The position numbers were made by a program, and so were the translations under genes. From positions 64,443 through 128,442 of the forward strand of contig CANQNQ010000004.1 in NCBI GenBank assembly GCA_947625225.1: a stretch of DNA of 64,000 nt, written 5' to 3'. This document shows positions 35,701 to 59,817 of the stretch, piece after piece. The stretch is from an uncultured Clostridia bacterium. Lineage in GTDB: Bacteria > Bacillota > Clostridia > Christensenellales > CAG-917. Positions within the stretch are counted from its first letter, which is position 1, and each line of letters begins with the position of its first letter. Below the pieces are notes generated by a model. The model did not search any database and was not told the DNA's origin. It saw only the letters and a program-made list of their open reading frames with translations.

Positions 35701-38700
35701 CCTTGTTGATGCTTATTGAAACCTTGCCGTTCTCTATGCCGAGGTTGACGGTCAAGCCGCCTGCCGCGCCCGCTTCGCCGGAAGAGCTTGTGCCGTCCGC
35801 AGAACCTATGGAATCGGCGGCGCTGAAGCCATCTGCCGCGCTCATTGCGGCGGAGGCAGTCGTTGCGCTCTGATAAGGCGACACGCCAAGCAGACCGCTG
35901 ATGCCCTGGAACTTGATCTTGCCCAAGCCGAGACCGGTGAGGTCGATGAATATCGCGTCGTTGTACGCGTGTGTGCTGTCAAACTTGCCGGCGGAGGACT
36001 CGTACGTCAAATTGCCGTTGTTCAATCTGGAAGAGCCGAGATAGTAGATCTTGGCGATCTCCTTGTTGACGGGGCTGCCCATGCTGAGCGTCAATTGCAG
36101 GTCGCTGAACAATATGCCGCCAATGCCGTAGGTGATCAGCGCCATGATGTTGAGGTCCGCCTGCAGGTCGACCTTCAACGTGACTGCGCCGTTGGGCAGC
36201 ACCAGGTTGAAGTCCGCCATGACAAAGCCGTATTTGCCGTCTGCACTCTCAAGATAAGCGCCGGAAGCGGCGTCGAGGTTATACCTCTTGTCGCCCGCTC
36301 TCCTCAGCTCGTCTTCGGACATATTTTCGACAAGTTTGTATGTGCCAAACAGGGACGAGCCTGCCAGAGTGTCCTTCAACAGGTTGGTCACCCAGCCCGC
36401 GAAGCTGTTGTCGTATTTCGCGTCTTTGTTTGTCAAGCCCGAGGCGTTGAGGGTCAGCTCGACGCCCATCTGTATGCCGATGGTGGGCAGCGTCATGCCG
36501 TCCTCGCCAAACAGCTTGTCAACGCTGACTCCGTCGCCGCCGATGAGGCTTGCTATGTCAAGGGTGCCCAGATTCACCCAGGTGCCGTCATCAAAGTCTA
36601 TCTTGCCGGTGTTTTCGCCCGCGGCGAAGAAGTCTGCCGAGGCGTAATTCTTCCTCAGCATGGTCACGCCGGGGATGTCCAAGCCGACGTACAGCGCGTC
36701 GCTGAGCCTCAGCGTCAAGCCCATGGCGGTCTTTTTGCCGGAAGCGTCCAGCTTGAGCATAATGTCGCCGATGTCGGGCAACAGATCCTGCTGCCACACG
36801 TCGGGATCCTCGCCGCGCAGCTGCATCACCTTGCTGTAGATGGCGTTGATGATGTCCGCGTTGAGCTGCAGCAATATCTTCTGCGGGTTGACAAGGATCA
36901 TCAGATAGGCATACTCCTTCATCAGCTGCTTCACCGTATCGATATCGCCTGCCGCCGCCAATGCGTCAACGGAACTTGTCGCCGCGGCGTCGGTGCCCAT
37001 CAGGTCGCCAAGCAGACCGCTGAGCATGCTGCCCAACGGACCTGTGCTGCCGCCCAGCTTGATGCCGCCCAGCTTCAACTTGGCGGTGGGGCCGAGGATG
37101 CCGCTGAGGTCTATGCCAACGTTGCCATCCTTGTCAAGATAGATGCCCAGCACCACACCGGTGCCGTCGCCGTTGACAGAATGCTTAAGCAAGTCGATGC
37201 GCGCCGCGATATTGAAGTCCTTGAGGTCAAGATATGCCTTGATGTCAAGGGTCAGGAAGGTGCCTTCCTTCTTGCCCAATGCGTTGGTTATGTTGATGTT
37301 GAAGGCGCTGCCCTTGATGGCGCTGCCTGCGCCGCCGCCCACAAGACCGAGGATCATGTCAAGCAATTGACCAAGCTCGATGGTGGTGTCGTCGGCGGTG
37401 GGATCGCCGTACAGCGACACGTTGATGGAGGTGGACAGCTCGACCTTGAGGTCGTTGATGCCCACGTAGGGATCCTTATACTCCTCGCCGTTGAGGTCCT
37501 TAAGTCTGGTACCCTTATCGTCAACGACATAGCCCTGCTCATCGCGCAGCACGCTCTGATACATCACAACGTTCTTGTCGACGGAGAAGTCCTTGTTGAC
37601 CGCCACGCCAAGGTCGGTGATGTGCACGCCAAAGCCGAAGTCGCCCAGCTTGAGGTATGCGCCGTCCGCAGCCTCTTCAAACGCGCCCGTTGCGGCGTTG
37701 AGGGTGTAGGCAGTGCCCTTCCAATTGGGATAAGCATAGCCGATCAGCGCGTACTCGTCGTTCATCACCAGCACGTACTTGGCGTCCTCCCTGGTGCAGC
37801 TTGTATCCGTGCACAGCACGTATTCGCCGCCCTCGAGGTGATAGTGCGCCATACCGGCAGGCAGATCATCGCCCTTGTTCCTCTGGCCATTCTCGCCGTA
37901 CATGTCGTTGTACTCTTTAAAGGTGAGGTAGTAGTCCGTGCCCATCTGGAAGCCCATGTTAAGGTCGATGGACGGAGCCTCGCCGTACAGGTTGATGGTC
38001 AAGCCCGAAGTGTCCGCACCCATGGATGTGAACAGCTTGGGCATATATTGCATGACGCCCGCGATGATCTCGTTGTCGGTGTCGGAGAACATCGCGATGA
38101 GGTCGCCAAGCAGCGTCTCGTTGAGGCCGACTGTGATAAAGTCGTTTGCGACAAGCAGTCTGCCTACGATCAGGTTGATTATGTCAAATATGTTTTCGGG
38201 CAGGATACCCGTGTCGACGTCCTCATCCGCGGAGGTGTACGCCTCGCTGGCGCCGCCAACGCCAAGCCCGCTGAGCAGACCCGCAATGTCTATGCCCTCA
38301 GCCTTTGCGTAGGAGAAGAAGTCGCCAAAGCCCACGATCTCCGCGATGTCCGTCACGTCCATCATCAGGTTAAGCTTGCCGGTGGTCTCGTCAAACTCCA
38401 GCCAGATGTACGCGGTGGCGGTATCGTCGCCGTGGAAGTTGGTGTCGTAGGTCACCTCAAGGTAGACCTTGGTGCCCTTAAGCGCGGCAATGATGTCGCG
38501 ATCCTCTGCGGGAGCAGTCAGCTGCGCGATGAGGTTGTTGATGGGCAGATACGCCTTGAGGTCGATGTCAAAGCCTATGGTGGACTCAAACGGCTCTGCG
38601 CCCTCCCCGCCTTCCTTGCCTTCTTCGTACAGAGATGTGACCAGCATGTACACAAAGTCCTCTATCTCCGCGCCGAAGAATTGGGTCATCTGATGCGTCC

Positions 38701-41700
38701 AGTTGATGACGTCCGTCAGCCTCATCTCGATTGCGAGGGACAGGTCGAGCTCCACAGTGTTGAGGCCGCCCAGCATTTCGGTGATCTCAAATTCCTTGGC
38801 GCCGCTGATGATGTCCTCAAGGTCAAGCGACAACGCCTGCGTGTAGTTTGCAAAGTCGTCCACCTTCTTGTACGCGATCACTTCGGGGCCGACAAGGTCC
38901 GCCTCGTTCATATCGGTGTAGCCGTTGCCGTTGGTGTCAAGCGGCAGATATTGCTCGCCGTCGATCGTTACGGGAGTTGCATAATTCGCCACGATCGGGT
39001 CATGAACTGTCGTCTTGTAAGTCTCGTTGTTGATGTCGGCAACCTTGACATATTGCAGATTGCCAACGCCCGTGAAGCCTTGCAGTTGCAGCTTGTTGAC
39101 CTCGATATAGCGGTTATTGTTGTTGCGGTCAAGCACCATCAGGTTGTTGGTGAAGTTGACAAAGCCGTCCTTGTTCACTATATCGCGATATACGCTGGTG
39201 GTCAGGTTGAGACCCGGCACGTCTTTAAGCTCGGTGTTGACGCCGTTGTACACGGTGTACAGATTTGCGTCATAGCCGGTAAGATGCTCCGAACCGAACG
39301 CGTAACGTCCGCCGATGCCGTCCTTGACCTCCACCATCACGGAGCCGGACTTGGAGTATCTCATCTCGGGAGCGTCTGTATACTGGCTGTAACGCGTGTC
39401 GATGTAAGCTTCCTCGCCGATGAGGCTCATCACGTTGTCCTCGTATTTGTACGCGCCTTCCGCGTCGACGTAGTACTCCTGGTCGCCGACCTTGGTCAGC
39501 TCGACATAGTCCTTTCCGTCGCCGTTCTTGCCGAAGTTGCCGTTTTCAAGGTCGTGATAGAAGTTGGCGTAGTAGAAGATGTAGTCGTAACCCGTCTGCT
39601 TCGTCTTGATATCCGCCTCGTCGCCAAACGCGATGTAGGAGGACTTGCCCATCTCGCCGTTGAGACCCTCGATCTGTATACCCATGTCGAGGATGGGCTT
39701 TGTGCCGTCCTCGTTGAGCAGCAGACCGCCCAGAGTCAACGCATAGGGATAGAGATCAAGCTTGAGGTACGCCTGCAGGTTGGGCAGCAGGTCGCTTATG
39801 GAGGAGCCTGCCAGCGACAGGTCGGGCAACAGCGAGTTGAATATCGCGCCGATGAAGCCCGCCGTGATGTCCACGCCTATCGCGCCCGTAAATATGTTGA
39901 TAAACAGACCTATATCCGTGCGGCCGTGACCCTCTTTGTACACACTGTACGGGTCGAAGTCCGCCGCGGGGATAGCCTCCTGCGTGGAGACAAGGTCGTT
40001 GTCAAGCACGCCGTCCAGCACGCCGTTGAGGATGTCCTCCAAGGAGTAGTCGCTCATATCCACGGCTATCTTGGCGTCCTTGCCAAGCAGCCACTCGAGG
40101 TCGAGATATATCGCGGACTTGCCGGTGTGCTCGTCGTGCGAGTAGTAGATGCCCAGCATGTGCGTCAGCGAGCCGTCCAGCAGCGCGCCTTCATAGTTGC
40201 CGCTTGCCCTGTCGTCCGCCGTGACGTAGCCGCCGGTAGCCAGCTTGTCGTTCTGCTCCATCCATGCGTCGATGGCGACGTCAAGGTCGCGCAGGAAGAA
40301 CCTGAGCGGCACAATGGAGATCTCAAAGCTGAGGTTGATCTTTATCTCGAAGTACAGCCTGAGCGTGGCATCGTCCGTCACCTGGAAGTTGCCCTCCAGC
40401 TGACCGAACACCGTGCCGAGCACGTCGCCAAGCGCCTCGTTGATGCCAAGGCGTGCGTCAAGGCCGCTGTTTGCCAGCACGTACAGCTGGTTGTTTGCCT
40501 TCAGCGCCTTTATTTCAGACTCATCGGTGACTGCCTGATAGCCGCCGTGATACTTCTTGTACGCGATGCCCTTAAGCGTCTCATCGGGCACTTCGCCGCC
40601 TTCGTGGAGCTGCTTGTAGAACTCGTTGTACGTTGCATAGTCAAGATATATCTTGCCCGCGTTGACAAACATGCTGCCCCTCAGCGTGATAGCCACGAAG
40701 TTCAGCTTGCCGACGGACAGATAATCGTCGTACATGTAATCGTTGTATTGCTCATCCGTAAAGTCGGGCTTTTGGATGACGCTTTCCTGCATGACGCGCA
40801 CGGAATACTCGCCCTCGCTATACTCGGTGCCGTCCGCTTTGGTCTCGCCGACCGCCAACTGACGCTTGGACTTGGCATTGTTGTCGTATCTCTTGTAGAT
40901 GTAAGGACGCCTCAGCTGCACAAATGCGGCGCTGTCCTCCGTCCTGCAGTCCACATAGTAGACGGTGTGTTTGTTGACCATCTCGGTCAGGAAGTCGGGG
41001 AATGTCTTCGCGCCATCCGTAACTTTGACGTACTGACCGCCCTCATCCTGTATGTACAAGGTGTCCGCGTTTATCGGGAAGTACTTGTTGTCATTCTCGA
41101 TATATCTGGGGTCTTTAAGATACTTTGTGGCGTCGAAACTGTCTGCCGTATAGTAGTCCTCAATGTACGCGCCCATACCGTCGGAAGCCTTGTCAACGCT
41201 GTCGAACACGTCCTCGACGACGTCCACAAAGCGCGCATCGGCGGGATAGTCCAGTTCCTGCGCCTTCGGGTCGTTTCCAAGGACATATTTGTACGGGATG
41301 GCGCCCAGCTGCGGGAAGTTGAGGCTGAGTCCTATGGAGTGATTCCACAGATACAGGTTGAGCTTGAGCAGCGGGTTGCGGGCTTCGAGTTCCTCAGCCA
41401 AATACAGACCCTCTGCCTCGGTATAATTGCCATCTGCCGCCTGCACGTAGAGTTTGGGCATCTCAATGCCGATTGTTTCATACTCCTTGTCCTTCTCGGC
41501 CGCGTCGATCTGCGCTCTGTTGGCGTCGGTGTATGCAACGTAGGCGTCACCCACCTTGATGTAAGTGACGGTGGCGGTCACGTCGTAATAGGCATATGGG
41601 TTGCCGTTTGCGTCCTTTTCGCCCTCCGACATCTTGGTGTCATAATTCGCCTTGTCGATCTCGCTCATGTCTGCCTTGAGCGCCATGCCGCCGTCGCTGT

Positions 41701-47700: not shown

Positions 47701-50700
47701 TTATAGCGGCAAGGTCCGTATCCGTGATATCCTCGGGATCTGCCGCCGCCATGGCTTCCGCTCCGCCCCCCGCGTCGGGACCGGGCATGGGCGTATCGCC
47801 GCCGATGGCGCTGTTGGCGGTGCCCAACAACTCCTTTACTTTGTCGCCGATCAGTTTGGAGAGACCGACGTTTTCAAGATATATCGCCTCATCGGACAGT
47901 ACGCCGAGATCGACATATATTGATGAACCAAATATATAAATAGCAATTATATTACCTAAATCACCTTCGGTAAGCTCTATCATCAACCTGGTGCGGCTGG
48001 GATCGTCCAGCGCAAGGTTGCCGCCCACCCTGAGGTCGAGCGCATAGAAGTTGTCCTGTGTGATGTCTATGCCAAGTTTGGTCGCAAATTCCACGCCGAA
48101 TGCGTCAAGCAGATTATGAAGTTTCAGCTCCTCGGACTGCGCCTTCAGCGTGAGGTCAAGCGAGAGCTGCGCGTTGAGCGAAATGCTGTCCAGCTTGTCA
48201 AGAGAAGTGTAGATGTCGCGGTTGAAGTCGAGGGGCAGTATCTGCGCCTCTTTGCCGACGCCAAGCGCTATCTTGCTGAGGGTCACGCCGATGGAGAGCG
48301 GCTGTATGCCAACGCTGAAGTTTATCCTGTAATCGCTTGCATTGGACTTCCACAGCAGTTGCAGATAGCTGTTTGTGGTGTCAAGCGCGGGCATCTGATC
48401 GGGAGTGAGGCTCTTGCCCGTGATCATATTGACCAACGCCGTCACAAGACCCGTGGCGAAGTTGATCTTGAGACCTTCCTCGCCAAGCGCTATGCGGCTG
48501 ATCAGCTGAGGCAGGAGCTTCAGCAGGGTGTCCACTGTGCTGCCGCCGCTTGCGCCGCTCTGCGGATCGTCTGCGGAGTATGCCTCCGCGCTGCCGCCCG
48601 CCGCGGGATCCGACGTGGAGTTGCCTCCGCCTATGCTCTTGATGAGGTCGCCGAGGTTGAAGTTGCTTATCGCAAGATGGAAGCCGTCGGACAGGTCGAT
48701 ATACATCGTGCTGGAAGGCACGTCGTTTACCTCGCCGTTGTACACAAGCCTCACCATCAACAAAGCGTGCTCGCGCCTTGCCGCGTCGTCTTCAAGACCC
48801 ATTATGGTCTCGATGTCCTCGTTGTACAGCTCTATGGCGATGCCGGAGTGGGACAGTATGTAGTCAATGTCGAACAGGTCGCCTATGGCGTAGATCTGCT
48901 CGCCCTCCTTGACGCTTGCAGCGTTGACTTTGACGTACATATCGCCGTCAAGCACATATACGTCGCCGTCCGTCTTGTCGACGGGCACGAAGCTTCTGCC
49001 GTCGGGCAGGTACTTCTTGACGTACAGTTTTGCGGTCGTATCGGGTTGAGTGGTGCCGTCCGTGTTGCTTATGACGGGACGTTGTACAACGCCGCCCGCG
49101 TCACGCTGCGCCGCCTCATAAAGCTGCGCGCCGTCGCTGAGCCAATACAGCTCCGCATAACGCGCCGAGACTGCCGCGAGGTCGGAGTCGTCCACGGGGA
49201 CAAACCTTGCGTTGTCGCGGATATCCACGGTGACGTTGGGGTTGAAGCGCGCGTTGAGCGCAATGCGGAAGCCGATGGCCTGCTCCACGGAGCTGGGCAC
49301 CGTGTATTGCATCACCAATCTCTGGATGAAGTTCTTTATTTCAACGTCTTTGACGTCTACGAGCGCGTTGATCCAATCGCCTATCTGCCAATCGGGATAC
49401 ACGCCGTTTTCGGCGCCAAAGGATATCGTGCCCTGCAACTCTGCCGATACAGTGGGCATGATGAGGTCGCCCGACGCATTGAACAGGTTGAGGTCGGTGT
49501 AAGATTCGACAAGCGAATTCTCATCGAAGTAGTCGTGGATCTTGTGTGGCTTGCCGCTTCTCGTGACGAAGCAGTCGGTCAGTGCGCCAACAGTGATTTT
49601 GGTGTTGCCAATGCTCAGCTTCAGCGAGCCTGTGGACTCGCCGTAGCTGTTTTTGACTGCGCCTTCAAGCACAATGCCGTCCTCTGTGCCCTTCTTGAGC
49701 GCGTCGAATGCGACGTCAAGGTACAGCTCGAAGTCCTGCATGGATATGCCGACCAGCTTGTACAGCGCGTCGACAATGCCTTCCATCAGCTCTATGCGCA
49801 GATGCTCGGAGGACAGCGTAACAAGCACGTTGATAAGCACGTCTATCGCCGCGGCGTCATCGCCGGGAGCCGCCGCCATCGCTTCTACGCCCTCAGCGGC
49901 CTGTCCGTTGAGGTTGACGACGGTGTCCTTTGCGACAAGACCCATGATGAGGCCCATCAGGTCGATGTCGGTCGCAAATTGATTGAAGCCGAAGTTGCTA
50001 AGGTCCGCATACAACATGCCGTCCACGTAGTACAGACCTATAAGCAGGCTCTTTTCGCCCCACTTGTTGCCGATAAGCTCGATGACAAATGCGGATTGAT
50101 TGTATGTGGTAAGGATATCCGTCTTGCCGACAAGATATTGGACGACGGGCGCAAGGTCAAGTCTGCCCGAAATGCGCAACTCATATCCAAAGTCTATGGC
50201 GTCGTCAAACACTATATCCAGATCCTGGAGATCGACGCCGCCCTGATCCGCCTTGAACTCTATGCCCAGATTGAGGTCGAGCGAGACGAGAGGATTGTTG
50301 TAAATGTCAACGTATGTATCCGCGTCTTCGGGCAGGTAGTTGCTCACGGTGTCGTGCAGACCCGCGTCAATGCCCTCTATTGCAAGGTTGAGGTCCATCA
50401 GATCGCCAAGCTTCACGCCGAAGCCCACTTGCACGCCGGGCAGGTTCAGACCCTTGGAGAAGTCAAGCCACAGCTGAGCGGAGGATTCGCCGCTTGTGAT
50501 CATGGGGTTGAGCTGTATGCCGCCAAGGTTGCCGACCAGCTCCTGCAATGCGCCGAATGTGAGCGCAAGTTTGATGACGTTCTGTCCAAACGAAACTTCG
50601 CTCAACATGCCCGCGACGATGCTGAGGATGCTGTCAATGGACATGCCGCCGCTCTCTTCGGGAGCAGCCGCATATGCCTCCTCTGCGCTGTCTTCGCCGC

Positions 50701-53347
50701 CGACGGCGCTTGCAAGCTGAGGAACAACGTCCCTGAGGTCGATCTTTACCTTGTCCAGCTTAAGCGCGGAAAGTTGCGCGTCAACGTACACAAATCCGTC
50801 CTGCAGATACACAGCAAGCAACGGTTTGTTTGTGCCCGCCTCGGACGGTTTGTTTGTGCCCGCCTCGGACGGTTTGTTTGTGCCCGCCTCTTTAAGTTCA
50901 ATGGCTGCCGAAGAGGTAAGCAGCGCGGAGATATTAAATCCGCTGCCCGCCACAAGACCGGACAGGTCGATGTCCGCGTCAATGTTCATCTCAATGCCGG
51001 TATCTATGCGCCCAAGCTCAAGCAACAACGCCACCACGATCTTGTCGTAGGCGGTGCCGATGTTTGCATTGTGCAAGATGTCTTCGATCGGGATGTCCAC
51101 TCCGCCCAGCGCCGCTTCCAGCGTTGAGATGTCCAGCTTGATGGAAGTGCCCGCGGTGAGATGGAACAGGTCTGCGTTGAGCACGCCGTCCCTGGTGATG
51201 GACAGATATTTTGCCGCATTGTCCTCTACTTCCTTAAACTTCTGCTTCCATATATCCTTGTTGGAAAGCGAACCGAAGGTTAGCTCGCCGCCCAGGTACA
51301 GCGTGGACACCAGCGGGTTTTCGGGATCGCCAAGCTGCAGGTTGACAAGCTCCAACGTCTTGGACTCGCCCACGCCGTTGTTCTTGTAGACCAATGCCAC
51401 GGGATCGTCGCCGTTGACGATGGGTATCTTTGCGCCGTCAAGGTCGCTGCCGGGGGTGAACACCATGCCGAAGATGGCGTTGAGTATGGTCTCGGTCAGC
51501 TCGACTTTGAGACCGGTGATGTTGAATATGTCTCCGTTTTTGTACAGAGTGGTGCTGTCAAGTATCATCCTGACAAGGGTCAGCACGTCGACGGTGCCGT
51601 CTCCCTCGTCCGCGGCGATGGCGTCGTGCGGAATGATTATGTCCGCGTTGCCAACCAGCCTGTCATACTCGGCGGCGGAAGCGCCCAAGCCGTTTATGGC
51701 GCCCACAACGGTGTCGAACAGGTCGGTGACCGCGCCTTTGAGCAGCTCGTTGATGTTGATGTCCGTCACCTTGAAGTAGGTGTTGCTGTCGCCAAGCAGA
51801 CCGCTTGCGTCAATGTACACGCAGTTGGTCTCGCCCGAATAGTACGCGCCAACGCGCGGCTTTGTGCCGTCGCCCGTGGCAAGCTCCGCCATAATGCGGG
51901 TCTTGGAGTAATCCTTGGTGTTTATCTCGCCCTGCACCGTCAGCGTGACGGTGATGGTCTGTCCAAGAGAAGTGATCGCCGTGTTGAAGAGGGGCTGCAG
52001 GCTTCCCAACATGTCGGGATCGAGGTTGTTTTGCAAAATATTTGTGAACAGCGAACCGAACGAACCCAATGCGTCGTTTATGGTAAACTGCTTGTTTGCA
52101 AAGTCTATTTCGAGGTTTACGCTGCCGTCGATGGTCAGCAGCGAGTAGTTTTCGTCCATCTCCTTTATCTTTTGATAGAAGGACACGGCGTTGCCTTCCT
52201 CGTCAAGCTCCATGCGGGAGCCGAGGAAATCCACAAGTTTAAGGTCGGGCGTGCCGACAAATCTTGCCTTGGACTCGCCCAGCATTATGCCGATCTCCTC
52301 CTGGAATCTGCCGTACTTTTCCTCGAGATCGGGCAGACCGTATGAATTGAGGTTGAGACCGATGTCCGTGTACATCTGCTGCAATTTGCCGTCCTGGATG
52401 TCCGCGGTGATGTTGAGCGCAATGCCGCTGAGGCTGGCAAGTTTGCCAAGGTCGAGGCCGATGACGTCCTCCACAAGGCCGATGATGTCCTCGGGAATGA
52501 CGCCCTGCAACAGAGGAAGAATCGTTGCGACAAGCGACAAGTCCACGGGAAGCTCTATAACGGTGTGACCGTTGCCGTAATCATAGTAGTGGCTGGAGGA
52601 ATTTGAAAGCAGCAGACCGACGATCAATTGCTCTATCGTCATGTCGATAAGGTCGATCTGCATATTGGGCAAAAGACCCTTGATGAGGTCGTTGAGGTTG
52701 TAGTTGAACAACTTGTTGTACACGATGTCGGAGATGTTGAGTTGGTGGAAAGCGTTGGCAAAAGCGCCCACAAACGAGGGTACGTCGAGGTTGTCCGTCC
52801 ACAAGACGTGCACGCCTTCGTCGCGCTTGATGCCTCTCAGATCCGCAACAAGCTTGCCCTCGAAGTAGTAGATGCCCAAAACCAATTGACCCCGACCCGC
52901 ACTTGCCATGGCGGAGGCGGAATCCTTGTCGATGATGCCGCCCACAAAGTCGTCGGGCACAAACTTCCTTATCTCTATCAACAGCTGGTTTTCTTCAGCG
53001 TCGGCGTCGCCCATGGTGTCGAGGTGACCCGCAAATCTCAGCACGGACAAGCTCTCATAAGCGGACTTTGAAAAGCCCAACACAAATGAGGTGTCAAAGT
53101 TGAGGTATCTGGCGTCCTTCTCCTCGGCGGAGGCGGCCATCGCCGCGTCCTTCAGCATTATCCACGCCTGCTGGGAGTCAATGCGCGACTGGTCCTCAAC
53201 GTCGGTGTTGGGGCCTCCGCCGCTCTGTCCCGGAATGACAGGGGGTGCGCTGGGATTGTTATCCGTTGGATTACATGCGACCAAAGCGACGGTAAGCACC
53301 ATCACCAGGATAAGCATCAACACAACTGCGATTTTTTGTCTTCTCAT
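26750..53347 (-). CDS. Giant predicted lipoprotein, 8,865 aa, novel modular architecture (putative surface fibril/adhesin; function unknown)
   Basis: The reading frame is open for 26.6 kb without interruption. The start is taken as ATG 53347, with GGAGG 7 nt upstream. The N-terminus MRRQKIAVVLMLILVMVLTVALVAC-NPTDNN is a lipoprotein signal with an L-V-A-C lipobox. Module-end and linker motifs recur at the protein level without nucleotide repetition, which argues for real coding. The gene has its own promoter and terminator. Confidence 0.9.
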   Translation of the reverse strand: MRRQKIAVVLMLILVMVLTVALVACNPTDNNPSAPPVIPGQSGGGPNTDVEDQSRIDSQQAWIMLKDAAMAASAEEKDARYLNFDTSFVLGFSKSAYESLSVLRFAGHLDTMGDADAEENQLLIEIRKFVPDDFVGGIIDKDSASAMASAGRGQLVLGIYYFEGKLVADLRGIKRDEGVHVLWTDNLDVPSFVGAFANAFHQLNISDIVYNKLFNYNLNDLIKGLLPNMQIDLIDMTIEQLIVGLLLSNSSSHYYDYGNGHTVIELPVDLSLVATILPLLQGVIPEDIIGLVEDVIGLDLGKLASLSGIALNITADIQDGKLQQMYTDIGLNLNSYGLPDLEEKYGRFQEEIGIMLGESKARFVGTPDLKLVDFLGSRMELDEEGNAVSFYQKIKEMDENYSLLTIDGSVNLEIDFANKQFTINDALGSFGSLFTNILQNNLDPDMLGSLQPLFNTAITSLGQTITVTLTVQGEINTKDYSKTRIMAELATGDGTKPRVGAYYSGETNCVYIDASGLLGDSNTYFKVTDININELLKGAVTDLFDTVVGAINGLGASAAEYDRLVGNADIIIPHDAIAADEGDGTVDVLTLVRMILDSTTLYKNGDIFNITGLKVELTETILNAIFGMVFTPGSDLDGAKIPIVNGDDPVALVYKNNGVGESKTLELVNLQLGDPENPLVSTLYLGGELTFGSLSNKDIWKQKFKEVEDNAAKYLSITRDGVLNADLFHLTAGTSIKLDISTLEAALGGVDIPIEDILHNANIGTAYDKIVVALLLELGRIDTGIEMNIDADIDLSGLVAGSGFNISALLTSSAAIELKEAGTNKPSEAGTNKPSEAGTNKPLLAVYLQDGFVYVDAQLSALKLDKVKIDLRDVVPQLASAVGGEDSAEEAYAAAPEESGGMSIDSILSIVAGMLSEVSFGQNVIKLALTFGALQELVGNLGGIQLNPMITSGESSAQLWLDFSKGLNLPGVQVGFGVKLGDLMDLNLAIEGIDAGLHDTVSNYLPEDADTYVDIYNNPLVSLDLNLGIEFKADQGGVDLQDLDIVFDDAIDFGYELRISGRLDLAPVVQYLVGKTDILTTYNQSAFVIELIGNKWGEKSLLIGLYYVDGMLYADLSNFGFNQFATDIDLMGLIMGLVAKDTVVNLNGQAAEGVEAMAAAPGDDAAAIDVLINVLVTLSSEHLRIELMEGIVDALYKLVGISMQDFELYLDVAFDALKKGTEDGIVLEGAVKNSYGESTGSLKLSIGNTKITVGALTDCFVTRSGKPHKIHDYFDENSLVESYTDLNLFNASGDLIMPTVSAELQGTISFGAENGVYPDWQIGDWINALVDVKDVEIKNFIQRLVMQYTVPSSVEQAIGFRIALNARFNPNVTVDIRDNARFVPVDDSDLAAVSARYAELYWLSDGAQLYEAAQRDAGGVVQRPVISNTDGTTQPDTTAKLYVKKYLPDGRSFVPVDKTDGDVYVLDGDMYVKVNAASVKEGEQIYAIGDLFDIDYILSHSGIAIELYNEDIETIMGLEDDAARREHALLMVRLVYNGEVNDVPSSTMYIDLSDGFHLAISNFNLGDLIKSIGGGNSTSDPAAGGSAEAYSADDPQSGASGGSTVDTLLKLLPQLISRIALGEEGLKINFATGLVTALVNMITGKSLTPDQMPALDTTNSYLQLLWKSNASDYRINFSVGIQPLSIGVTLSKIALGVGKEAQILPLDFNRDIYTSLDKLDSISLNAQLSLDLTLKAQSEELKLHNLLDAFGVEFATKLGIDITQDNFYALDLRVGGNLALDDPSRTRLMIELTEGDLGNIIAIYIFGSSIYVDLGVLSDEAIYLENVGLSKLIGDKVKELLGTANSAIGGDTPMPGPDAGGGAEAMAAADPEDITDTDLAAIIELGQGSLQLTIGQAVIAGIIAAVLTQIPSVNFNFDNLLNTLDLDLILNALLQIDETGVMARLDLGSNLIDLSLGIDNIDVITGNSDPLYDELESEVSQKISQKDVLTGDAGDRDVYYLVKETAAGDGAPEQYILKKSFDGTTYTRVDENEYVDHFVDRSEVRVVTIDLKLFIEYSTGATYRYIADAQELSAYDESERYMRRVSDGRFVQDKGGQYVRTPFDLNAVLDFVFGLLPLDGIAGTMLPSYHFNNNDGILSADKSTFPLKQLLDQLGLDLLFGHAIYDGLMLHITGKLDLDKLGLGDLSTLDFDSIPTFDTNTILGALEARVSLDFTYETAVQPSDRSFVDFYLIDRVIYADLSGIGGPQVKMSLQRIMDLINSASGSAEEALAAAPEGSSGVTNTLQMILNTLVKSIALQSRTWTTNKALWRIEAINLLFNSNMFYKMFTSETFKNVFGATLNIPAENLELVEDGDYASGLYVTLADNKHFEGFTSNGALTLKMLLAFANFNAPSEDKIVPYATEMTLGLDVGVGFEDPGAGSLLDPDAQMNYIDFEQYLDTILALANGADKGDNEGEQYVSLTASGMLYFNSADVATYDIGSMGMLSNLLGDLMIQLQTAGQYNSGIGLKIAANIDLAHVDLAKLFEASDADFLTKIKNFVNSEGTDLSTLELAIQLVKTNEQGRFARYDNGEPIVLAGIYLNAGSLYIDGTGIATSAEQYARVDDFEAYARRIYREGLSGVFGEEASAAADEITDPIDVETRNALIALVYSDEAIKIQLTKALIAIVLGSFVDGLGDIADVFENMELSVDFEIGADEYKPLAELETTDPDLFNKFKKEDLFRQEIYKYYEEETFKEYIDDGDMSDYYVAIGANGNYSFYPVDSTTLWQKDGEEDYTAVEYKGDVVTGIESGDYFVLDNAVYNKVQFVTKGKDTTASSDLYLGIDVAGGGADGKTHLALRNYGMYFGMEKAVEGAEGGLTQTEYIPTTIYVNDDAHNLHTFVSYNGSYSQAKLEDRLFGYVREPEADLSNDKDYLYYRTVRSYTDLSEFSLGVALQMGTLSLGLRIGAIDIGIGGGGDQLLPDYIRDGVAHSYTTSDGKEHGYIRDEYNALETKPEIEEVPVTKLSDSIITLEFSVELNLDITSGALDFGMIFAGILGELAGVRLDVPNTAIGYSSAHFRLDFALTLDMHSFSDLELKLELVQVTSTGFDLLWAGIYFFNGGLYFDLSNVFGIPKMSMSDINVETVLRSLFDMIRGVGSGSSSGDEALASANAAVGGMGAGNNNIDYDNPDLALLLFLNKNDLALVIGDVLFELVLEYLPDDLLGFPIRDLFYEEINGNLSVELNTEDDIDLSLSATLGLPGDRYYSTATMTKEQNKPGELTADLLAVYNDLTDITTNTRYYVFVEDTAGTYIMGGNGRYIRPLMPNDVTDGQTLYKKYRLSDKDGAFEVYEVLSNSAMEELAASPIELEGEKVYNIFYCVDGAAANITTVSDYGKHDMNLQLGLAIKDLGVRFSNSRTSVINSEDLDGYTGFGDLDHVTLNEIIDITTDFKPGDDNSVDLSSVFELLGFDLDPESVLISALGDDGGDVERSIRLRLDVDVQLLGLANYARTHLITVENQDGEMGFLDVVELLRAVFDGQINILDHVTELLNYIDLSLILETKGSGDEDYHTLVGIYLSSGSYKKLEADNLNEDSADYVKPADRYDHYYKAGFGNYKYVVNEGVGSYVILTAEEKSQYIEAVDGAYKQDENGNYVEIGEGEEYEGTRYAVNNAYVAPADRYTYDSVNCYQNDNGNYMHTEGGLYVDLTYFNLPSLEVPSNMVNDLLGSLGGTSAGGAAEAMAAADTQADAAIDLPLLSGENATIADYIRGLVYGFSITSKYISILLKPDYINTILTLIMGDDALQFDASEFVNYPSLYLYTDMSKFRYVDEDKLLNSVVEAYDELYKQYKESVSDDEARVNALRDMLRAPGYVELQSLLNASRQRFSVTTYTKDTDKGMYYVDSDGGMALKADMSEIDKANYDTKMSEGEKDANGNPYAYYDVTATVTYIKVGDAYVAYTDANRAQIDAAEKDKEYETIGIEMPKLYVQAADGNYTEAEGLYLAEELEARNPLLKLNLYLWNHSIGLSLNFPQLGAIPYKYVLGNDPKAQELDYPADARFVDVVEDVFDSVDKASDGMGAYIEDYYTADSFDATKYLKDPRYIENDNKYFPINADTLYIQDEGGQYVKVTDGAKTFPDFLTEMVNKHTVYYVDCRTEDSAAFVQLRRPYIYKRYDNNAKSKRQLAVGETKADGTEYSEGEYSVRVMQESVIQKPDFTDEQYNDYMYDDYLSVGKLNFVAITLRGSMFVNAGKIYLDYATYNEFYKQLHEGGEVPDETLKGIAYKKYHGGYQAVTDESEIKALKANNQLYVLANSGLDARLGINEALGDVLGTVFGQLEGNFQVTDDATLRLYFEIKINLSFEISIVPLRFFLRDLDVAIDAWMEQNDKLATGGYVTADDRASGNYEGALLDGSLTHMLGIYYSHDEHTGKSAIYLDLEWLLGKDAKIAVDMSDYSLEDILNGVLDGVLDNDLVSTQEAIPAADFDPYSVYKEGHGRTDIGLFINIFTGAIGVDITAGFIGAIFNSLLPDLSLAGSSISDLLPNLQAYLKLDLYPYALTLGGLLLNEDGTKPILDMGIQIEGLNGEMGKSSYIAFGDEADIKTKQTGYDYIFYYANFYHDLENGNFGKNGDGKDYVELTKVGDQEYYVDAEGAYKYEDNVMSLIGEEAYIDTRYSQYTDAPEMRYSKSGSVMVEVKDGIGGRYAFGSEHLTGYDANLYTVYNGVNTELKDVPGLNLTTSVYRDIVNKDGFVNFTNNLMVLDRNNNNRYIEVNKLQLQGFTGVGNLQYVKVADINNETYKTTVHDPIVANYATPVTIDGEQYLPLDTNGNGYTDMNEADLVGPEVIAYKKVDDFANYTQALSLDLEDIISGAKEFEITEMLGGLNTVELDLSLAIEMRLTDVINWTHQMTQFFGAEIEDFVYMLVTSLYEEGKEGGEGAEPFESTIGFDIDLKAYLPINNLIAQLTAPAEDRDIIAALKGTKVYLEVTYDTNFHGDDTATAYIWLEFDETTGKLNLMMDVTDIAEIVGFGDFFSYAKAEGIDIAGLLSGLGVGGASEAYTSADEDVDTGILPENIFDIINLIVGRLLVANDFITVGLNETLLGDLIAMFSDTDNEIIAGVMQYMPKLFTSMGADTSGLTINLYGEAPSIDLNMGFQMGTDYYLTFKEYNDMYGENGQRNKGDDLPAGMAHYHLEGGEYVLCTDTSCTREDAKYVLVMNDEYALIGYAYPNWKGTAYTLNAATGAFEEAADGAYLKLGDFGFGVHITDLGVAVNKDFSVDKNVVMYQSVLRDEQGYVVDDKGTRLKDLNGEEYKDPYVGINDLKVELSTSINVSLYGDPTADDTTIELGQLLDMILGLVGGGAGSAIKGSAFNINITNALGKKEGTFLTLDIKAYLDLKDFNIAARIDLLKHSVNGDGTGVVLGIYLDKDGNVGIDLSGILGPTAKLKLGGIKLGGSTGPLGSMLSGLLGDLMGTDAAATSSVDALAAAGDIDTVKQLMKEYAYLMILVNPQKILLQLNADIINAIYSKVMQLRGEDPDVWQQDLLPDIGDIMLKLDASGKKTAMGLTLRLSDALYVGLDIPGVTMLRKNYASADFFAAGENTGKIDFDDGTWVNLGTLDIASLIGGDGVSVDKLFGEDGMTLPTIGIQMGVELTLNASGLTNKDAKYDNSFAGWVTNLLKDTLAGSSLFGTYKLVENMSEDELRRAGDKRYNLDAASGAYLESADGKYGFVMADFNLVLPNGAVTLKVDLQADLNIMALITYGIGGILFSDLQLTLSMGSPVNKEIAKIYYLGSSRLNNGNLTYESSAGKFDSTHAYNDAIFIDLTGLGLGKIKFQGISGLLGVSPYQSATTASAAMSAADGFSAADSIGSADGTSSSGEAGAAGGLTVNLGIENGKVSISINKGLLNSVFGMLGLALPFELPIEQIDLSLLTGDSGISQIAVNARLDNEGTSLSATINPININFGSGILKTKDLIEEVKVGYAGLTLSNTAGTSNLIQNILDGIGLYAKIEIQNKVWSAVATNPRDESTRSFYTETKTLLRGQRVYHDGSMTKDNPGYILKLDLEATRGTAGSDKGGGWTTNGGSTVVSVPVLFGGNNLWIGNQTNNLIVGLGGNPVGDAIMQAIGNGAILPMDLGSMMGSGKLFDFVSGSDGDNDQYAVPAAGNSGVTGWDSGKTSYSYPLQLTNLIKSVELDLFNSNGYWPYYSSMKSSSMHNNGMGNISVKVELNKDAYNELILMVDVLLLNMINGKSHSNPDGVYAFDVSKVDTDTSKDATTYSGAAYTFKKHNPDGSTSDVTVSGHLDAVFDELDYLLQHDATTEQKVALIEPLARSIPAAFIKFILEGVNVTAVGDLWKGNVLSSLVTDTIGNLSRLISNILPLPFASGDISPSLNIYIDVDPQKSDYGITDGGITMHPGIQAIEIFVNGKKNGVGTSMLYNNAATTTVSSFKNRTVTSTGASNYDGTNKTNKTTTSLNNAWDYFMLSLTPYGNESSSVQDPMLGFLDSDSANLTDTSGVTVPQAIYITNPATGAGYLSANGQANSNIGTFDRLTDNYFYTNPTKFPRVANVVYGKKDGGNTQNSFLAGSTAAPGTSIVWDASTIDYTPSNSSEPRIGGFVYGYALNTVMYAIPVYITNNYQYMNSVKEAVAGNQSKAIQLDMKQDSSTYNTKLPDEVVVSLRNDTSNADVRFGTYLEDAEGNMAYAILITAGTGINNNWEKATATKGTDSKGASVDSGHTFHSSVMSTVTYNNVEYNLYPAYIAGLAKNSADGSYITQDIGGVTYYFILKDQFVDKKVPAGTFKWNLDDFAFNWSGAGSRGDQGENLTVGFTYQWGFATPVSGKLGIPVKNYYIASLTGLSGNGITLDGNSALKLGSTQGKDGYEFTLSIDAINMTSDISDLVAYLNKLTTAKGIYGNSLNGDTFDDLDVKFDTTELEKALAAIKTGDGKYDYYKGLDVTVPVTLGASKFKVEYTSTNADGSHTTGFKGSESIGSDNMIGQTVMIRIVVNSYTFASAETNYTFDPYQYKEVKFDNIVGDTFTADAAHKPTLRFRVRNADGSYVTREISYDANMEEQSADAALTFDTKTVYILNDKGEYVDAHKSNTVAGGTTFMLDEDAMISYEGYAYAKEHPLYIKVDLGTDYSGKQTFYVPITVKSFTQRGVATMDILHADTFNPLWYKSDAYKSLASVELTDENGNTVTHTMYPDWSTVVYYTNSNFNIEKPVQDISGQSLVYAKVRMTATEDGLGHKYVGTDPEKHRVYEAQTFSLRISVEQQNEFKSVRFFNGGDIYATTKGGTDAAATNALTAQMQDVSNYTATVYAQTHTIDGVAFGIDPLVYAAHPEYYFKNNNGRPYWGNFYVDEKGAIKTDGNMLLGTAVLVEPFPIALNTSIYDTKLYKLVDGKYVEVGDGDTPEYKLNKNTNQYEPYTDGDKGTPYIAYIQSWNETLGKVAIGGKQITLNESLGGHPLPEFKVNVPDYNVTAVKSVTGGTFTLNSGDLTADGMLTLTHDVYTAWSMPDAATVTTAQGNGDIAAKILWSNSNALTSSENVQQDEDGKYFITRTYQLGMGENNAVKTAQLTAKLYLENYGVDVQWSLNNQGSEYTIFGAKPQWASTATVMIGGETKSTTVPVLWQDSRTLPTLAEINAGKMTRSYVLPIGKNGTQRVKGSAEITINSAAAFKDSHGADFTGDMHAGTLGYTLKAEYFFDGLPTQGTVNGNTVKFSWTVKSGQYTTKGGELDMNLTVSGNDLTLSNLPVHVILEKAEITEVLNNTKDTIWAYDVYGGEFGNMFANGSTLDVKINGKTNKSLKVNYNLAEVDSKLGGSLQAFYDNVANYFGKVFTLKATFDFTGANWLPEDEKEFEFNMYVMDRTFIAFENARYRSLIIDPNYTANVDGYDNPLNVITSSFGGNFIANGTDTVSVEVDWSPINAMIASKTSNTSFMLETVFAIADAKGYYVKNATGKYVPYTSGNVQRYYLVKQSINVPVTILNRDILDSEVVFSNAVKYLYTDTSRRDITTQTVVGFEGGVREDGRYIDITYSRTTHLPTTFTFYNRYSYAGPKDATLTPANMPLRLRLKFANNSSDVYYITYGEKLEDGSIVNGVPTIDEIENLTGTNRFNVNVHVWSKNPEEAGAFEVMDPFTVEFVIRASALTMYNSDIAYDDMSYGDYKYSYDPYNTQSMVASGMFKDSMTYYVDGQFISAESWWNEGRSANFGITSYSATWEKRHTNYLVYTRDGSTYTEGIRNNQQVYYTYNESNRTYSKYTGDVEDGYAAADGRTLYIFIYVTTLKMNLTWDDSTADYSYRGGVTRVKATATSTSYGHNCAATFDVPVLVNSAVATDVKMPDDYSNEFWNATLNAFVVDPLGNNDIRERTGTYTGQRFSLADDGVSYVKDKLGTFGIDGDTYFELDEAQLGTYTYLPKTLKLTLENGKTVDVDVTWDLSNVVINYKGSATPYIARAYVDNTKYNHGVDIGSQRFTFDVYVADRSVKRPNDGSFRSLDAYAKYGSDGTEATATEAIDPYDDQALVNPTMPDSIELYFNPASFSRSTDGSISQGTGMNDSRTFTVGAADGNRLEWNYGKYNPTWKGGVTYVTAILTSANGVVQEYDVPLLVQRKVVTSLSYKPDPTNTSTTTWNIKTKEGVEAYEQYTSEVDGTYTVSPKNARTLSLPSAYTVYFKSWNPKYNYSTKQADFKSAGVGTDSNIAYNYLTTSMPASAEWTAKNGKWDWSGKTGNGTIQIGTQQTITVKMDLDTSVSATVSGGVVSGVTVNSSYGQNELPSQIGDVPVAWVGRVTVSKLSGGSPVTFPVILSAASGNISLPTFGSRNVVYTLCCVYCPLVDVNGAVVLTKSADANHGTSAVKAGDKIPYGLGWVHPASGQEVTVTING
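26753..35755 (-). other. C-terminal ~3,000-aa region of the giant protein: Thr/Asn/Tyr/Gly-rich, with recurring Ig-like W...GG...VPV units
   Basis: At least 10 degenerate units match the pattern [VIL]xW(D/S)xS...(K/R)GG...V.A.....Q..(D)VP(V/L)xV. Examples are VDVTWDLSNVVINYKGSATPYIARAYV...FTFDVYVADRSV, MNLTWDDSTADYSYRGGVTRVKATA...FDVPVLVNSAVA and RLEWNYGKYNPTWKGGVTYVTAILTS...YDVPLLVQRKVV. The protein ends ...CCVYCPLVDVNG...EVTVTING with no LPXTG. Confidence 0.55.
35756..52900 (-). repeat. Protein-level array of about 13 large degenerate modules (about 260-745 aa each) in the giant protein
   Basis: Each module ends with a motif like ..(L)(L/V)xGIY(L/Y)xxGxLYxDLSxxG.. followed 25-60 aa later by a low-complexity linker with the core [AS]E[AE]x[AS][AS]A[DP]. 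Linker cores lie at about 51590-51700, 50657-50695, 49862-49909, 48569-48589, 47726-47761, 46505-46558, 45449-45475, 43886-43915, 42148-42225, 39950-39992, 38212-38270, 36936-37003 and 35756-35870. After each linker comes an amphipathic ..ID.LL.LL..L...I.L.....L.I.L...L..A.....-type segment. Confidence 0.7.
50821..50890 (-). repeat. Perfect 24-bp tandem repeat, 2.9 copies, in frame (EAGTNKPS x3)
   Basis: ACGGTTTGTTTGTGCCCGCCTCGG is repeated at 50821, 50845 and 50869 on the plus-strand text. It encodes KEAGTNKPSEAGTNKPSEAGTNKPLLAVYLQDGFVYVD. Confidence 0.95.
53273..53347 (-). other. Lipoprotein signal peptide and lipobox of the giant protein
   Basis: It has an RRQK n-region, a 17-residue hydrophobic core and an LVAC lipobox. 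The Cys25 codon is at 53275..53273, followed by a Pro/Gly/Asn-rich tether (NPTDNNPSAPPVIPGQSGGGPN). Confidence 0.8.
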
Positions 53348-53417
53348 ACATCTTCCTCCAAACCCACACATACGCCTTAACGTGTACGCAACGTACGCAT
53401 AGATTTTATACGGTAGT

Positions 53418-53446
53418 ATTATACTCCCGAAAATCCCCTTTGTCAA
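53418..53446 (-). promoter_or_regulatory. Perfect-consensus sigma-A promoter of the giant gene (TTGACA-17-TATAAT)
   Basis: On the minus strand, -35 TTGACA is at 53446..53441 and -10 TATAAT at 53423..53418, with an exact 17-nt spacer. This predicts a 5' UTR of about 64 nt. The ORF-track TTG start coincides with the -35 element. Confidence 0.65.
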
Positions 53447-53619: not shown

Positions 53620-53758
53620 ATTATCTGCGCGTCGGCACGCCGCGCCCGTCCTCTTTTTGACGTTTGAAACGCGCTTCCCGCCGCGCCGCTTCCGGCGTAA
53701 AAACTCTTAATAAATTTGCCGTATTGCGGCATAAAGCCGCAAAACAAACTTATTTTTA

Positions 53759-53787
53759 TTGACGGTGTCGTCCGCGCATGGTATACT
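53759..53787 (+). promoter_or_regulatory. Candidate promoter of the DUF1624 acyltransferase gene (TTGACG-17-TATACT); leaderless mRNA predicted
   Basis: -35 is at 53759..53764 and -10 at 53782..53787. The ATG at 53794 starts 7 nt after the -10 element, and there is no Shine-Dalgarno sequence. Confidence 0.5.
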
Positions 53788-53793
53788 CAAAAT

Positions 53794-54687
53794 ATGGTAA
53801 ACGCACAGCCCAAAATCGCATATTCCACGTCGCGCAACTATCTTCCGAAGCCCTCCAAGCGCATCTGGGAGCTGGACTTTTTGCGCGGCCTGTGCGTCAT
53901 ACTGATGGTGCTGGACCACACCGCCCTGCTGGTGGGCACGTGGTTTGCGCCCGCATGGTACGGCTACGACTTCTTTGAGGCGGGGCTGGGCGACGCGTTC
54001 TGCCGCTTTTGCTATTGGTGGTGCGACAGTCTTGACCGCACGATAGCCCACAACGTGGTGCTGGTGGTGTTTTTTGCAATATCCGGCATATCCTGCTACT
54101 TTTCGCGCTCAAACTTCAAGCGCGGCGGGCAGCTGCTGGCGGTGGCGGAATTGTATACGCTGGTCACCCTGTTTATGGAATACGTGCTGGGCATCACGGG
54201 CGAGGTGGTCACCTTCGGCGTGCTGCACTTCCTTGCCTGCGCCATACTGATATACTCGCTGGTAGACGTTGTTTGCAGACACGACACAAAGACGGTCACC
54301 ATATGGGCGGCAGGGATAATAAGCATAACGCTGCTGTTGTACTTCTGCTACACGCCGCCCGCAAGCACGCCCAAAATTTTCTACATAGTTTTCCCGCCTC
54401 ACGACATCTTCGGCAACAAATCGCTGTTTTACACGCAGACGGAGATGTCGCCCGGCGACCTGTTTTCCCTCATCCCATACCTTGCGCACTTCTTTCTGGG
54501 CGTGATGATAGCTCCCTTCCTTTACGGGGAGCGAGTGTCCCTGCTGCCAAGGCTGGACGGCAAGTGGAACAAGCCCGTGGCGTTTGTGGGCAGACACGCC
54601 CTGATCATATATCTGGCGCACGTCGCCGCCATGGCGGGCATATGCGCGGTGGCGGGCTACATTGCCTTCGGCACGTGGGGATTTTAA
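53794..54687 (+). CDS. DUF1624-type (heparan-alpha-glucosaminide N-acetyltransferase-like) membrane acyltransferase (297 aa)
   Basis: KRIWELDFLRGLCVILMVLDHTALLVG... followed by about 8 more TM helices. The start is moved from the ORF-track 53716 to ATG 53794 because the promoter lies inside the longer ORF. Confidence 0.75.
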   Translation: MVNAQPKIAYSTSRNYLPKPSKRIWELDFLRGLCVILMVLDHTALLVGTWFAPAWYGYDFFEAGLGDAFCRFCYWWCDSLDRTIAHNVVLVVFFAISGISCYFSRSNFKRGGQLLAVAELYTLVTLFMEYVLGITGEVVTFGVLHFLACAILIYSLVDVVCRHDTKTVTIWAAGIISITLLLYFCYTPPASTPKIFYIVFPPHDIFGNKSLFYTQTEMSPGDLFSLIPYLAHFFLGVMIAPFLYGERVSLLPRLDGKWNKPVAFVGRHALIIYLAHVAAMAGICAVAGYIAFGTWGF

Positions 54688-58386: not shown

Positions 58387-58463
58387 AACCGCACTTTATC
58401 CATGCAATATACGTAGCACAACATCGTTTTGCGCTGTATTTTGGTGATTTTGAGATGGGCGGA

Positions 58464-59333: not shown

Positions 59334-59817
59334 ATGCGATCCTCCGATTGTTGTCATAAAATATACAACATTTATGATAAAAGGTTACATATTTTTTATC
59401 AGTATATCACAACCCAAAATATTTGCATAGCAAATTGAGGTACATTCGCCCGCTCGCGACAAAAAATTTTTAGGCGCGTCCTTTGTTTTCGACTTGATTT
59501 ATGATCACATAATGACGCACAACAGCAACTTTATCGTATATTTCAGCAATATAAACACCGCATTTTGTAGTATAAATGCCAAATAATATAATTTGAAGAA
59601 TTGTATGCCCGTCGTCTGTTTCGCCGTATATATCACAGGCGGCAAATGCAAAACGGGCGCCCTTAAGGCGACTCCCAAGATCCCCACGCACTTTCATGAG
59701 CTATCAAACCTATACTATTGACAACCGAGTGAAGCCAAAGCAAAAAACGGCGAGACAAAAGCGCACTTCCCATAGTGAACAAAAACAAAATTTTTAGAAT
59801 TGTGCTTTCAAGCGATG

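Follow-up and report, generated by a model that had tools for sequence, protein, structure and literature searches.

Degenerate modules of a new domain family in a predicted near-megadalton lipoprotein of uncultured Clostridia

The giant gene and its module array

We analysed a 64,000-nucleotide (nt) stretch of DNA, hereafter the window, from an uncultured Clostridia bacterium (GenBank assembly GCA_947625225.1, contig CANQNQ010000004.1, positions 64,443 to 128,442), which carries one giant gene on the minus strand (26750..53347; 8,865 codons from an ATG at 53347, plus stop). Based on its translation, the encoded precursor has 8,865 amino acids (aa), a mass of 965 kDa and an isoelectric point (pI) of 4.3, with Cys making up 0.1% of residues. 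A putative lipoprotein signal is followed by a long array of degenerate modules and then by a C-terminal region free of them. The module represents a new domain family, for which no fold relative could be detected, and it is carried by a new family of near-megadalton lipoproteins.

In the open reading frame (ORF) list, the gene lies within a mechanically delimited minus-strand ORF (26750..53446). We number residues from the TTG codon at 53446, so that residue n begins at window position 53446 − 3(n − 1). This TTG was rejected as the start because it belongs to the −35 hexamer of a sigma-70-type promoter match (53418..53446, minus strand; TTGACA-17-TATAAT, 12/12), a consensus match only, which lies ~70 nt upstream of the ATG. 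The likely start codon is the ATG at 53347, which is preceded at 6 nt by a GGAGGA ribosome-binding site. The translated region upstream of the start also appears to be conserved among orthologous loci (…IRYACM…) and, together with the consensus match, suggests a conserved promoter and leader. The first 25 residues (MRRQKIAVVLMLILVMVLTVALVAC, aa 34–58; 53273..53347, minus strand) read MRRQK-IAVVLMLILVMVLTVA-LVAC, with a positively charged beginning, a hydrophobic stretch and an end that fits the lipobox [LVI][ASTVI][GAS]C, matched by eye, with aa 58 as the predicted lipidated Cys. This is the pattern of a signal peptidase II substrate, placing the predicted product among the bacterial lipoproteins.

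A first-pass annotation, made from the letters of the window, had described 35756..52900 (minus strand; aa 183–5897, first hairpin to last linker; 622 kDa, pI 4.2) as ~13 degenerate modules, conserved at their starts and ends and irregularly spaced at ~260–745 aa. All of the peptides that it quoted are present in the translation of the ORF 26750..53446. We found 13 strong junctions and one degenerate first one between aa ~183 and 5960, a junction being the end of one module, the linker and the start of the next. The measured spacing was 270–737 aa, and motif searches located the hairpin and the linker motif at matching intervals.

All junctions lie on the minus strand, and J1 to J13 are each supported by the family junction profile and by an independent hidden Markov model (HMM), whose matches start near the first residues listed here. 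J1 (51431..51952; aa 499–672) scored 97.0 bits, or 75.8 bits with the independent HMM, and is followed by J2 (50411..50998; aa 817–1012), J3 (49649..50188; aa 1087–1266), J4 (48311..48904; aa 1515–1712), which has a longer hairpin loop, J5 (47537..48046; aa 1801–1970), J6 (46253..46849; aa 2200–2398), J7 (45248..45832; aa 2539–2733) and J8 (43658..44179; aa 3090–3263). In J9 (41930..42502; aa 3649–3839), an insert of ~110 aa splits the hairpin, leaving its strands at aa ~3585 and ~3715. The array continues with J10 (39752..40291; aa 4386–4565), J11 (37985..38575; aa 4958–5154) and J12 (36722..37258; aa 5397–5575), and ends with J13 (35567..36115; aa 5778–5960), which extends slightly beyond the end coordinate first proposed. 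The degenerate first hairpin, J0 (52832..52888; aa 187–205, LVLGIYYFEGKLVADLRG), has no linker after it and was recovered with an HMM of the end element and by leave-one-out; with the independent HMM it reached 14.9 bits, no better than controls.

Such a series might be no true repeat at all, its modules being mere look-alikes that share composition or secondary structure within a long, beta-rich protein. Module–module identity of only ~20% would fit that explanation, as would the six large modules that lack an end-to-end alignment to the minimal module described below and the weakness of pairwise BLAST E-values, which reached 2.6e-5 at best (aa 914–1092 against aa 1615–1793, in a self-BLAST of fragments). 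The whole giant protein searched against itself gave the identity match only. Even so, the fragment self-BLAST returned 127 non-self matches at E < 1, compared to 15–35 in block shuffles. When 15 provisional modules were compared with hhalign (105 pairs, using a small orthologue alignment), 11 pairs reached at least 40% probability, and the third and fifth modules (M3 and M5) aligned end to end over 190 columns with 93% probability (E = 2.5e-7). Reversed templates reached at most 6%, and all alignments above that ceiling were colinear, starts pairing with starts and ends with ends. HMMs of the hairpin ends, each built with one copy left out, retrieved the omitted copy as next-best match in 10/10 cases, above the reversed control. 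The independent HMM, for which 139 distant proteins supplied 527 junctions and neither the window nor its 13 closest relatives were used, matched 13 window junctions at 55–91 bits, against maxima of 14.4 bits for reversed and 4.1 bits for shuffled controls; three of its matches (aa 1525, 3709 and 4424) span only part of the junction. Finally, the junction recurs 12–17 times in the top-scoring unrelated giants. The leave-one-out test, the family profile search and the independent HMM together refute the look-alike explanation, to which we assign a negligible probability. The repeat described by the first-pass annotation is thus borne out: the refutation tests proposed with it, on internal periodicity and on matches to known repeat families, were run in equivalent form, and the claim survived them.

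The same annotation had found no nucleotide repeats. Matches of 25–53 nt are chance-sized, as that statement would have it, and the part that does not stand concerns a single tandem inside J2 (50821–50890; 24 nt × 2.9, 100% identical). It encodes AGTNKPSE three times just before the J2 hairpin and has the appearance of a loop recently expanded by slippage.

Beyond the array lies a non-module region (26753..35566, minus strand; aa 5961–8898) of 320 kDa, which is rich in Thr, Ser, Asn and Tyr, looks beta-structured and contains no junction matches; with the independent HMM, nothing in these C-terminal 2,900 aa rose above the controls. A borderline match to Big_4, an Ig-like adhesin domain, was found at aa 8423–8462 (window 28061–28180), at 22.2 bits compared to a cut-off of 22.1 (E = 1e-4).

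Module anatomy, size variation and linkers

The family junction consensus, based on 691 junctions from 153 proteins, runs from end strands through a Tyr-Tyr-Asp hairpin, a strand, a helix and an acidic linker to a helix, a short hairpin and a second helix. It opens with two amphipathic end strands (..L.LdLkA.LDL and sELaIEL), followed by the hairpin lLGIYy.dg.LYIDL, whose two Tyr and one Asp are conserved at 77%, 80% and 72%, respectively. After the hairpin come a strand (LG.pKiKI) and a helix (NL.dLL), and then a linker containing an Ala motif, an acidic stretch and the start of the next module.

To obtain a predicted structure, AlphaFold2 was applied to aa 1515–1970 (47537..48904, minus strand), a segment comprising the end of M4, a linker, the whole of M5, a second linker and the start of M6. 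A model based on a 5-sequence alignment had a predicted local distance difference test (pLDDT) score of 38 and was discarded. With a 34-sequence alignment, derived from 74 full-length minimal modules of 40 family proteins by coverage-filtered HMM iteration, mean pLDDT rose to 69.5, with a predicted template modelling score of 0.57 and 260 residues at or above 70. M5 was mostly at pLDDT 75–92, and most of each linker was below 50. The predicted start of M5 consists of a helix (1637–1648), a short hairpin (1649–1654 and 1658–1663) and another helix (1665–1676). Its middle is predicted to contain strands of 6, 9, 14 and 14 residues, two short helices and strands of 14 and 8 residues, and its end a terminal hairpin (1832–1839 and 1842–1846), a short strand and a 19-residue helix (1862–1880). 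The module end had been described as a strand pair, in agreement with this terminal hairpin. The amphipathic segment described at the module start is likewise a conserved element, but its predicted fold is helix, short beta-hairpin, helix.

Reading the sequence of aa 1694–1846 against the predicted strand boundaries, we found an almost perfect alternation of hydrophobic and polar residues along the long M5 strands (for example, in ISLNAQLSLDLTLK and YRINFSVGI). Because of this alternation, the sequence suggests that the module is a single sheet with one face covered by helices. In that predicted respect it resembles TULIP/BPI-like, helix-grip (PRELID1) and MHC-like platforms, a resemblance that serves as a lead only since the corresponding Foldseek rows had E ≥ 0.039, template modelling (TM) scores of at most 0.16 and identities of 5–12%.

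A sheet of this kind could make the modules the working parts of the protein, each binding a hydrophobic or glycan ligand, with the array acting as a multivalent binder, a scavenger or an organiser of the envelope. It might, for example, capture lipids or sterols for a bacterium with a small genome, or form a protein matrix in the wall zone. Consistent with this, sheet-plus-helix ligand binders (Osh6p, juvenile-hormone-binding protein, SPLUNC1, PRELID1, MTP, ApoB100 and MR1/CD1) are enriched among the weak top rows of the Foldseek list, module cores are under strong purifying selection (see below) and the related genome L003 is only 1.65 Mb in size. On the other hand, all of the fold matches are non-significant, with a probability of at most 0.25 and a best PDB row at E = 0.039 and a TM score of 0.12; the Pfam, NCBIfam and PDB searches gave no sequence similarity to lipid-transfer families; and sheets covered by helices on one side are very widespread. 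We regard ligand binding by the modules as rather unlikely.

The statement that the module does not belong to a described repeat family also held. Searches of Pfam and NCBIfam with aa 34–5000 returned 0 families at E ≤ 0.1. Among 34 family module sequences, no Pfam family appeared in more than one member, even at E ≤ 1, and none was assigned at E ≤ 0.01 to P0039, P0028, P0005, P0041 or P0192. Against PDB sequences, phmmer gave 0 matches at E ≤ 1 and a profile hmmsearch 0 at E ≤ 10. Foldseek searches with the pLDDT-69.5 model, disordered linkers included, found no match at E ≤ 1e-3 in PDB or BFVD.

Across the family, junction spacing peaks at 275–325 aa, with a median of 318 aa. The basic module is ~300 aa long, and the large modules of the window are versions with expanded or replaced middles. 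M2, M3, M5, M7, M12 and M13 align end to end with a 437-column profile of the minimal module and, compared to it, M2, M3, M7, M12 and M13 carry inserts of 12–96 aa at a few positions, mostly in loops of the model. The other six of the 12 inter-junction modules (M4, M6 and M8–M11) gave no end-to-end alignment; M8 aligned over about half of the profile, and M4, M6 and M9–M11 only at one junction. A variable, beta-looking middle had been proposed to set module size, which is right in outline, but homology of the middles could be shown for only half of the modules.

The expanded middles are rich in short Tyr/Gly/Asp motifs of the RYxxxxDGxYV(xV) type, which recur between modules (aa 1440–1530, 2020–2135, 2750–2960, 3270–3400, 3600–3720, 3900–4330, 4600–4870, 5170–5300 and 5700–5760) and in the C-terminal region (for example, aa 7100–7110, 7410–7450 and 7960–7990). 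Orthologues differ in the presence of these motifs, as in a 47-aa insert in M3 of P0001. The motifs had no Pfam match, and YD/Rhs, choline-binding/YG and Listeria-Bacteroides repeats were rejected as identities of the Tyr/Gly-rich inserts for want of Pfam support.

The linkers of the window are 22–49 aa long (family median 28), consist of Ala, Gly, Ser, Asp, Glu and Thr and are predicted to be disordered. This agrees with the low-complexity linker first described in composition, but the linkers are not featureless: each contains a conserved motif, EA-x-[AT]-A-A-[DE], in some cases with Pro at the last position. Examples are found at aa 922–929 (~50660–50683), 1186–1193 (~49868–49891), 1896–1903 (~47738–47761), 2301–2308 (~46523–46546) and 3751–3758 (~42173–42196). 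The family form is e-A-x-[ATS]-[AST]-A-[DE], with the first Ala conserved at 66% over the 691 junctions. The ratio of nonsynonymous to synonymous substitution rates (dN/dS) was 0.12 in the motif, a small sample of 8 columns and 99 codons, compared to 0.24–0.29 in the linker flanks. The motif is constrained like the folded core and not like the linker around it, and we infer that it is a recognition site for modification, docking or cleavage.

If the site were one of cleavage, the giant protein would be a polyprotein, a precursor cut by a protease at the linker motif into ~14 paralogous proteins of 30–80 kDa and a C-terminal piece, which might, for instance, build a surface layer. The conservation of so short a motif in most junctions, inside disordered and fast-evolving linkers, speaks for this, as does its low dN/dS relative to the flanks, subject to the small number of codons. 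Small residues at the would-be −3 and −1 positions resemble signal-peptidase-type sites. Pro at +1 blocks type I signal peptidase, however, and three motifs of the window read AAAP; with Pro at +1 in several sites, type I signal peptidase was rejected as the enzyme acting on the motif. Furthermore, Pfam searches revealed no protease domain in the giant protein or the adjoining genes, and the released pieces would have no evident means of retention, since only the first module would stay lipid-anchored. We consider the polyprotein explanation improbable.

Relatives, selection and genomic neighbourhood

A profile search against 1.84 billion representative proteins, using an alignment of the 13 window junctions and 11 from two homologues, yielded 178 proteins at E ≤ 1e-3, of which 42 were also at E ≤ 1e-30. 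The best-scoring relatives are 5,000–7,900 aa long, with 12–17 separately matched junctions each. Among other representatives of at least 5,000 aa, 20/22 have a signal peptide with a lipobox, and these long representatives contain 5–16 junctions in their first ~2,900–5,800 aa, followed by a non-module C-terminal part. Based on these sequence features, the module architecture is common to a family of putative giant lipoproteins that comprises at least 178 clusters at 50% identity. Its members come from metagenome-assembled Clostridia, and the named relatives are only uncultured Clostridiales bins and a ‘Christensenella sp.’ bin. The linker motif, the lipobox, the ~300-aa basic unit and this wider family all go beyond what the first-pass annotation saw.

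A word-indexed protein search returned only two homologues, at 32–33% identity, and a scan of one genome per species returned four loci at 36–46% identity, hosted by two uncultured Clostridia/Clostridiales bins, an unclassified bacterium bin and the ‘Christensenella sp.’ metagenome-assembled genome (MAG) L003. Two of the loci have intact N-terminal stretches of ~5,670 aa, which are colinear with the window protein module by module and reach the end of the fetched sequence. The giant protein is ~41% identical to its orthologue in L003 (CP091723.1), compared to 64–83% for neighbouring genes, among them an esterase (55965–56879; 71%) and the ORF at 57091–58386 (64–83%).

For the two closest orthologues (92% aa identity), dN/dS was 0.15 over the array and 0.10–0.13 in the end strands, the hairpin, the post-hairpin element and the start element. 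The array is real coding sequence under purifying selection. With paralogous modules at ~20% identity and orthologues colinear at 36–46%, these values uphold the earlier view that it is ancient and selectively maintained.

In L001 (a Logan contig, ERR4565261) and in the long-read MAG L003, the orthologous giant genes are broken into 4–7 overlapping ORFs by apparent frameshifts, which are probably assembly or long-read errors. Owing to such breaks, family members appear in gene calls as many fragments. The giant gene of L006 is present as two pieces, of 3,629 and 4,850 aa.

Within the window, the giant gene has a G+C content of ~56% and is flanked by ordinary chromosomal genes (secA, recD2-like, metK, rpoC, rpoB, pyrG and Fe-ADH). 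Two stretches, 18001–22000 and 58001–64000, have a lower G+C content than the rest (0.42–0.49 versus 0.53–0.58); transfer RNA and Rfam scans of the window, including these stretches, gave no match. Long ORFs also lie on the plus strand opposite the giant gene (35969–43303, 44138–45559, 45791–47923 and 48116–51127; up to 2,444 aa). They were rejected as genes and are shadow ORFs: the two that were checked, starting at 35969 and 48116, occupy the antisense frame that is aligned with the sense codons, and the antisense ORFs are long because the sense codons TTA, CTA and TCA are almost absent from the giant ORF (40/8,898 codons).

Divergent from the giant gene is a gene for a membrane acyltransferase (53716..54687, plus strand; HGSNAT_cat/Acyl_transf_3 by Pfam, OpgC-like). 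An acyltransferase lies directly upstream of the giant gene in all 4 of the related loci whose upstream region was available (L001 361–1119, L002 4377–5405, L003 8726–9475 and L004 3519–4547; tblastn, 40–53% identity). Because HGSNAT_cat-type enzymes usually acylate extracytoplasmic glycans, the one encoded here may be connected with modification of the giant protein or of its linkers.

Function and comparison with known systems

Taking the anatomy as established, we infer a function for the protein as a whole. The reading that we favour, with about an even chance of being right, is that of an acidic, lipid-anchored tether of the beads-on-a-string type, carrying the 2,900-aa beta-rich region at its distal end. 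The N-terminal Cys would anchor the protein in the cytoplasmic membrane, and the array would form a long, flexible and strongly negative stalk, spanning the wall zone and keeping the C-terminal region well away from the cell. There, the distal region, and possibly also the Tyr-rich loop inserts, would attach to host material, particles or other cells. In favour of this reading, the protein behaves like a surface protein in diverging faster than its neighbours and having little Cys; in one family member, the piece encoded downstream of the module array has recorded CarboxypepD_reg (Ig-like) domains, and one family member takes its name from that domain; and the borderline Big_4 match points in the same direction.

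Several points weigh against the tether. A pure spacer role leaves unexplained both the dN/dS of ~0.1 in the module cores and the family-wide conservation of the linker motif. Apart from the borderline Big_4 match, Pfam recognised no adhesin or ligand-binding domain in the giant protein, and the C-terminal region had only one homologue in the word-indexed search. Family members are named ‘hypothetical protein [Eubacteriales/Clostridia bacterium]’ and, in one case, ‘carboxypeptidase-like regulatory domain-containing protein’. The AlphaFold2 model, for its part, is of medium confidence and covers one module.

A bolder combination would make the ~300-aa unit a new fold, the linker motif a processing or modification site and the 26.6-kb gene a polyprotein or a serially modified chain. 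We rate this as a long shot; were it true, it would yield ~14 paralogous ligand-binding surface domains, giving a small-genome gut bacterium a means to capture hydrophobic nutrients or to attach to a partner.

These results define a domain family not catalogued before, together with a family of lipoproteins of nearly a megadalton. On a chromosome of 1.65 Mb, the size found in L003, the 26.6-kb giant gene would take up ~1.6%. Divergence about twofold faster than that of neighbouring genes, combined with purifying selection, is typical of a major component exposed at the surface and therefore makes the protein a prime candidate for the attachment or interaction of these gut bacteria with their surroundings. 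The only genus name attached to any relative is Christensenella, which has attracted interest in studies of associations with host health. The junction profile should help annotators with hundreds of giant ‘hypothetical proteins’, the conserved linker motif offers something concrete to test, and the module family merits a family description and structural follow-up.

The giant protein belongs to a known kind, the giant modular bacterial surface protein, and does not so far amount to a new mechanism. Among Gram-positive bacteria, giant surface proteins built from repeats include Ebh of Staphylococcus aureus, SasG/Aap and the ‘periscope’ proteins. With these, the protein of the window shares near-megadalton size, acidity, a predicted extracellular location and many tandem modules, which would form an elongated structure projecting another region outward. 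Their anchor is a C-terminal LPXTG or membrane segment, whereas the one predicted here is an N-terminal lipobox. The modules also differ in being ~300 aa long and of mixed alpha/beta type, with no FIVAR, GA, G5, Rib or other Pfam match, and in being separated by disordered linkers with a conserved motif. Near-identical DNA repeats, which mark periscope proteins, were absent from the gene apart from the tandem in J2. As the module repeats are ancient, ~20% identical and devoid of DNA similarity, recombinational length variation, the trait that defines periscope proteins, is not expected.

A second comparison is with the repeating beta-groove, or AsmA-like, bridge proteins, such as TamB, YhdP, AsmA and the eukaryotic VPS13 type. 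These too are very long, with degenerate units seen only at the protein or profile level and with amphipathic beta-strands and interspersed helices. They carry an N-terminal transmembrane helix in place of a lipobox anchor, and no AsmA, TamB, YhdP or DUF490-type profile in Pfam or NCBIfam matched the giant protein at E ≤ 0.1. Around the one module modelled, the linkers predicted to be disordered argue against a continuous groove. Clostridia are generally a single-membrane class, and we know of no second membrane in these hosts to which the giant protein could bridge.

Our searches of the accessible literature found no paper describing this module family; the giants of Clostridia reported previously (10.1101/2023.11.21.568195) are different, being of the RCC1 and Listeria-Bacteroides-repeat type. 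The nanohaloarchaea, with genomes of ~1 Mb, encode membrane-anchored ‘SPEARE’-type surface proteins of 8,880–9,409 aa and pI ~4, which combine Ig-like or fibronectin-like domains with a VirB4/TraG-like ATPase and have been proposed to bind host cells (PMC10266531). The protein described here differs from them in its bacterial host, in having no sequence relationship to them and in containing no ATPase or other enzymatic domain detectable with Pfam or NCBIfam. It is like them in length and acidity (8,865 aa and pI 4.3, compared to 8,880–9,409 aa and pI 4.0–4.1), in its Sec signal and predicted membrane anchoring, in the small size of the genomes concerned and in being more divergent than the rest of the genome. 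By analogy, these archaeal giants lend support to the reading of the Clostridia protein as a lipid-anchored tether.

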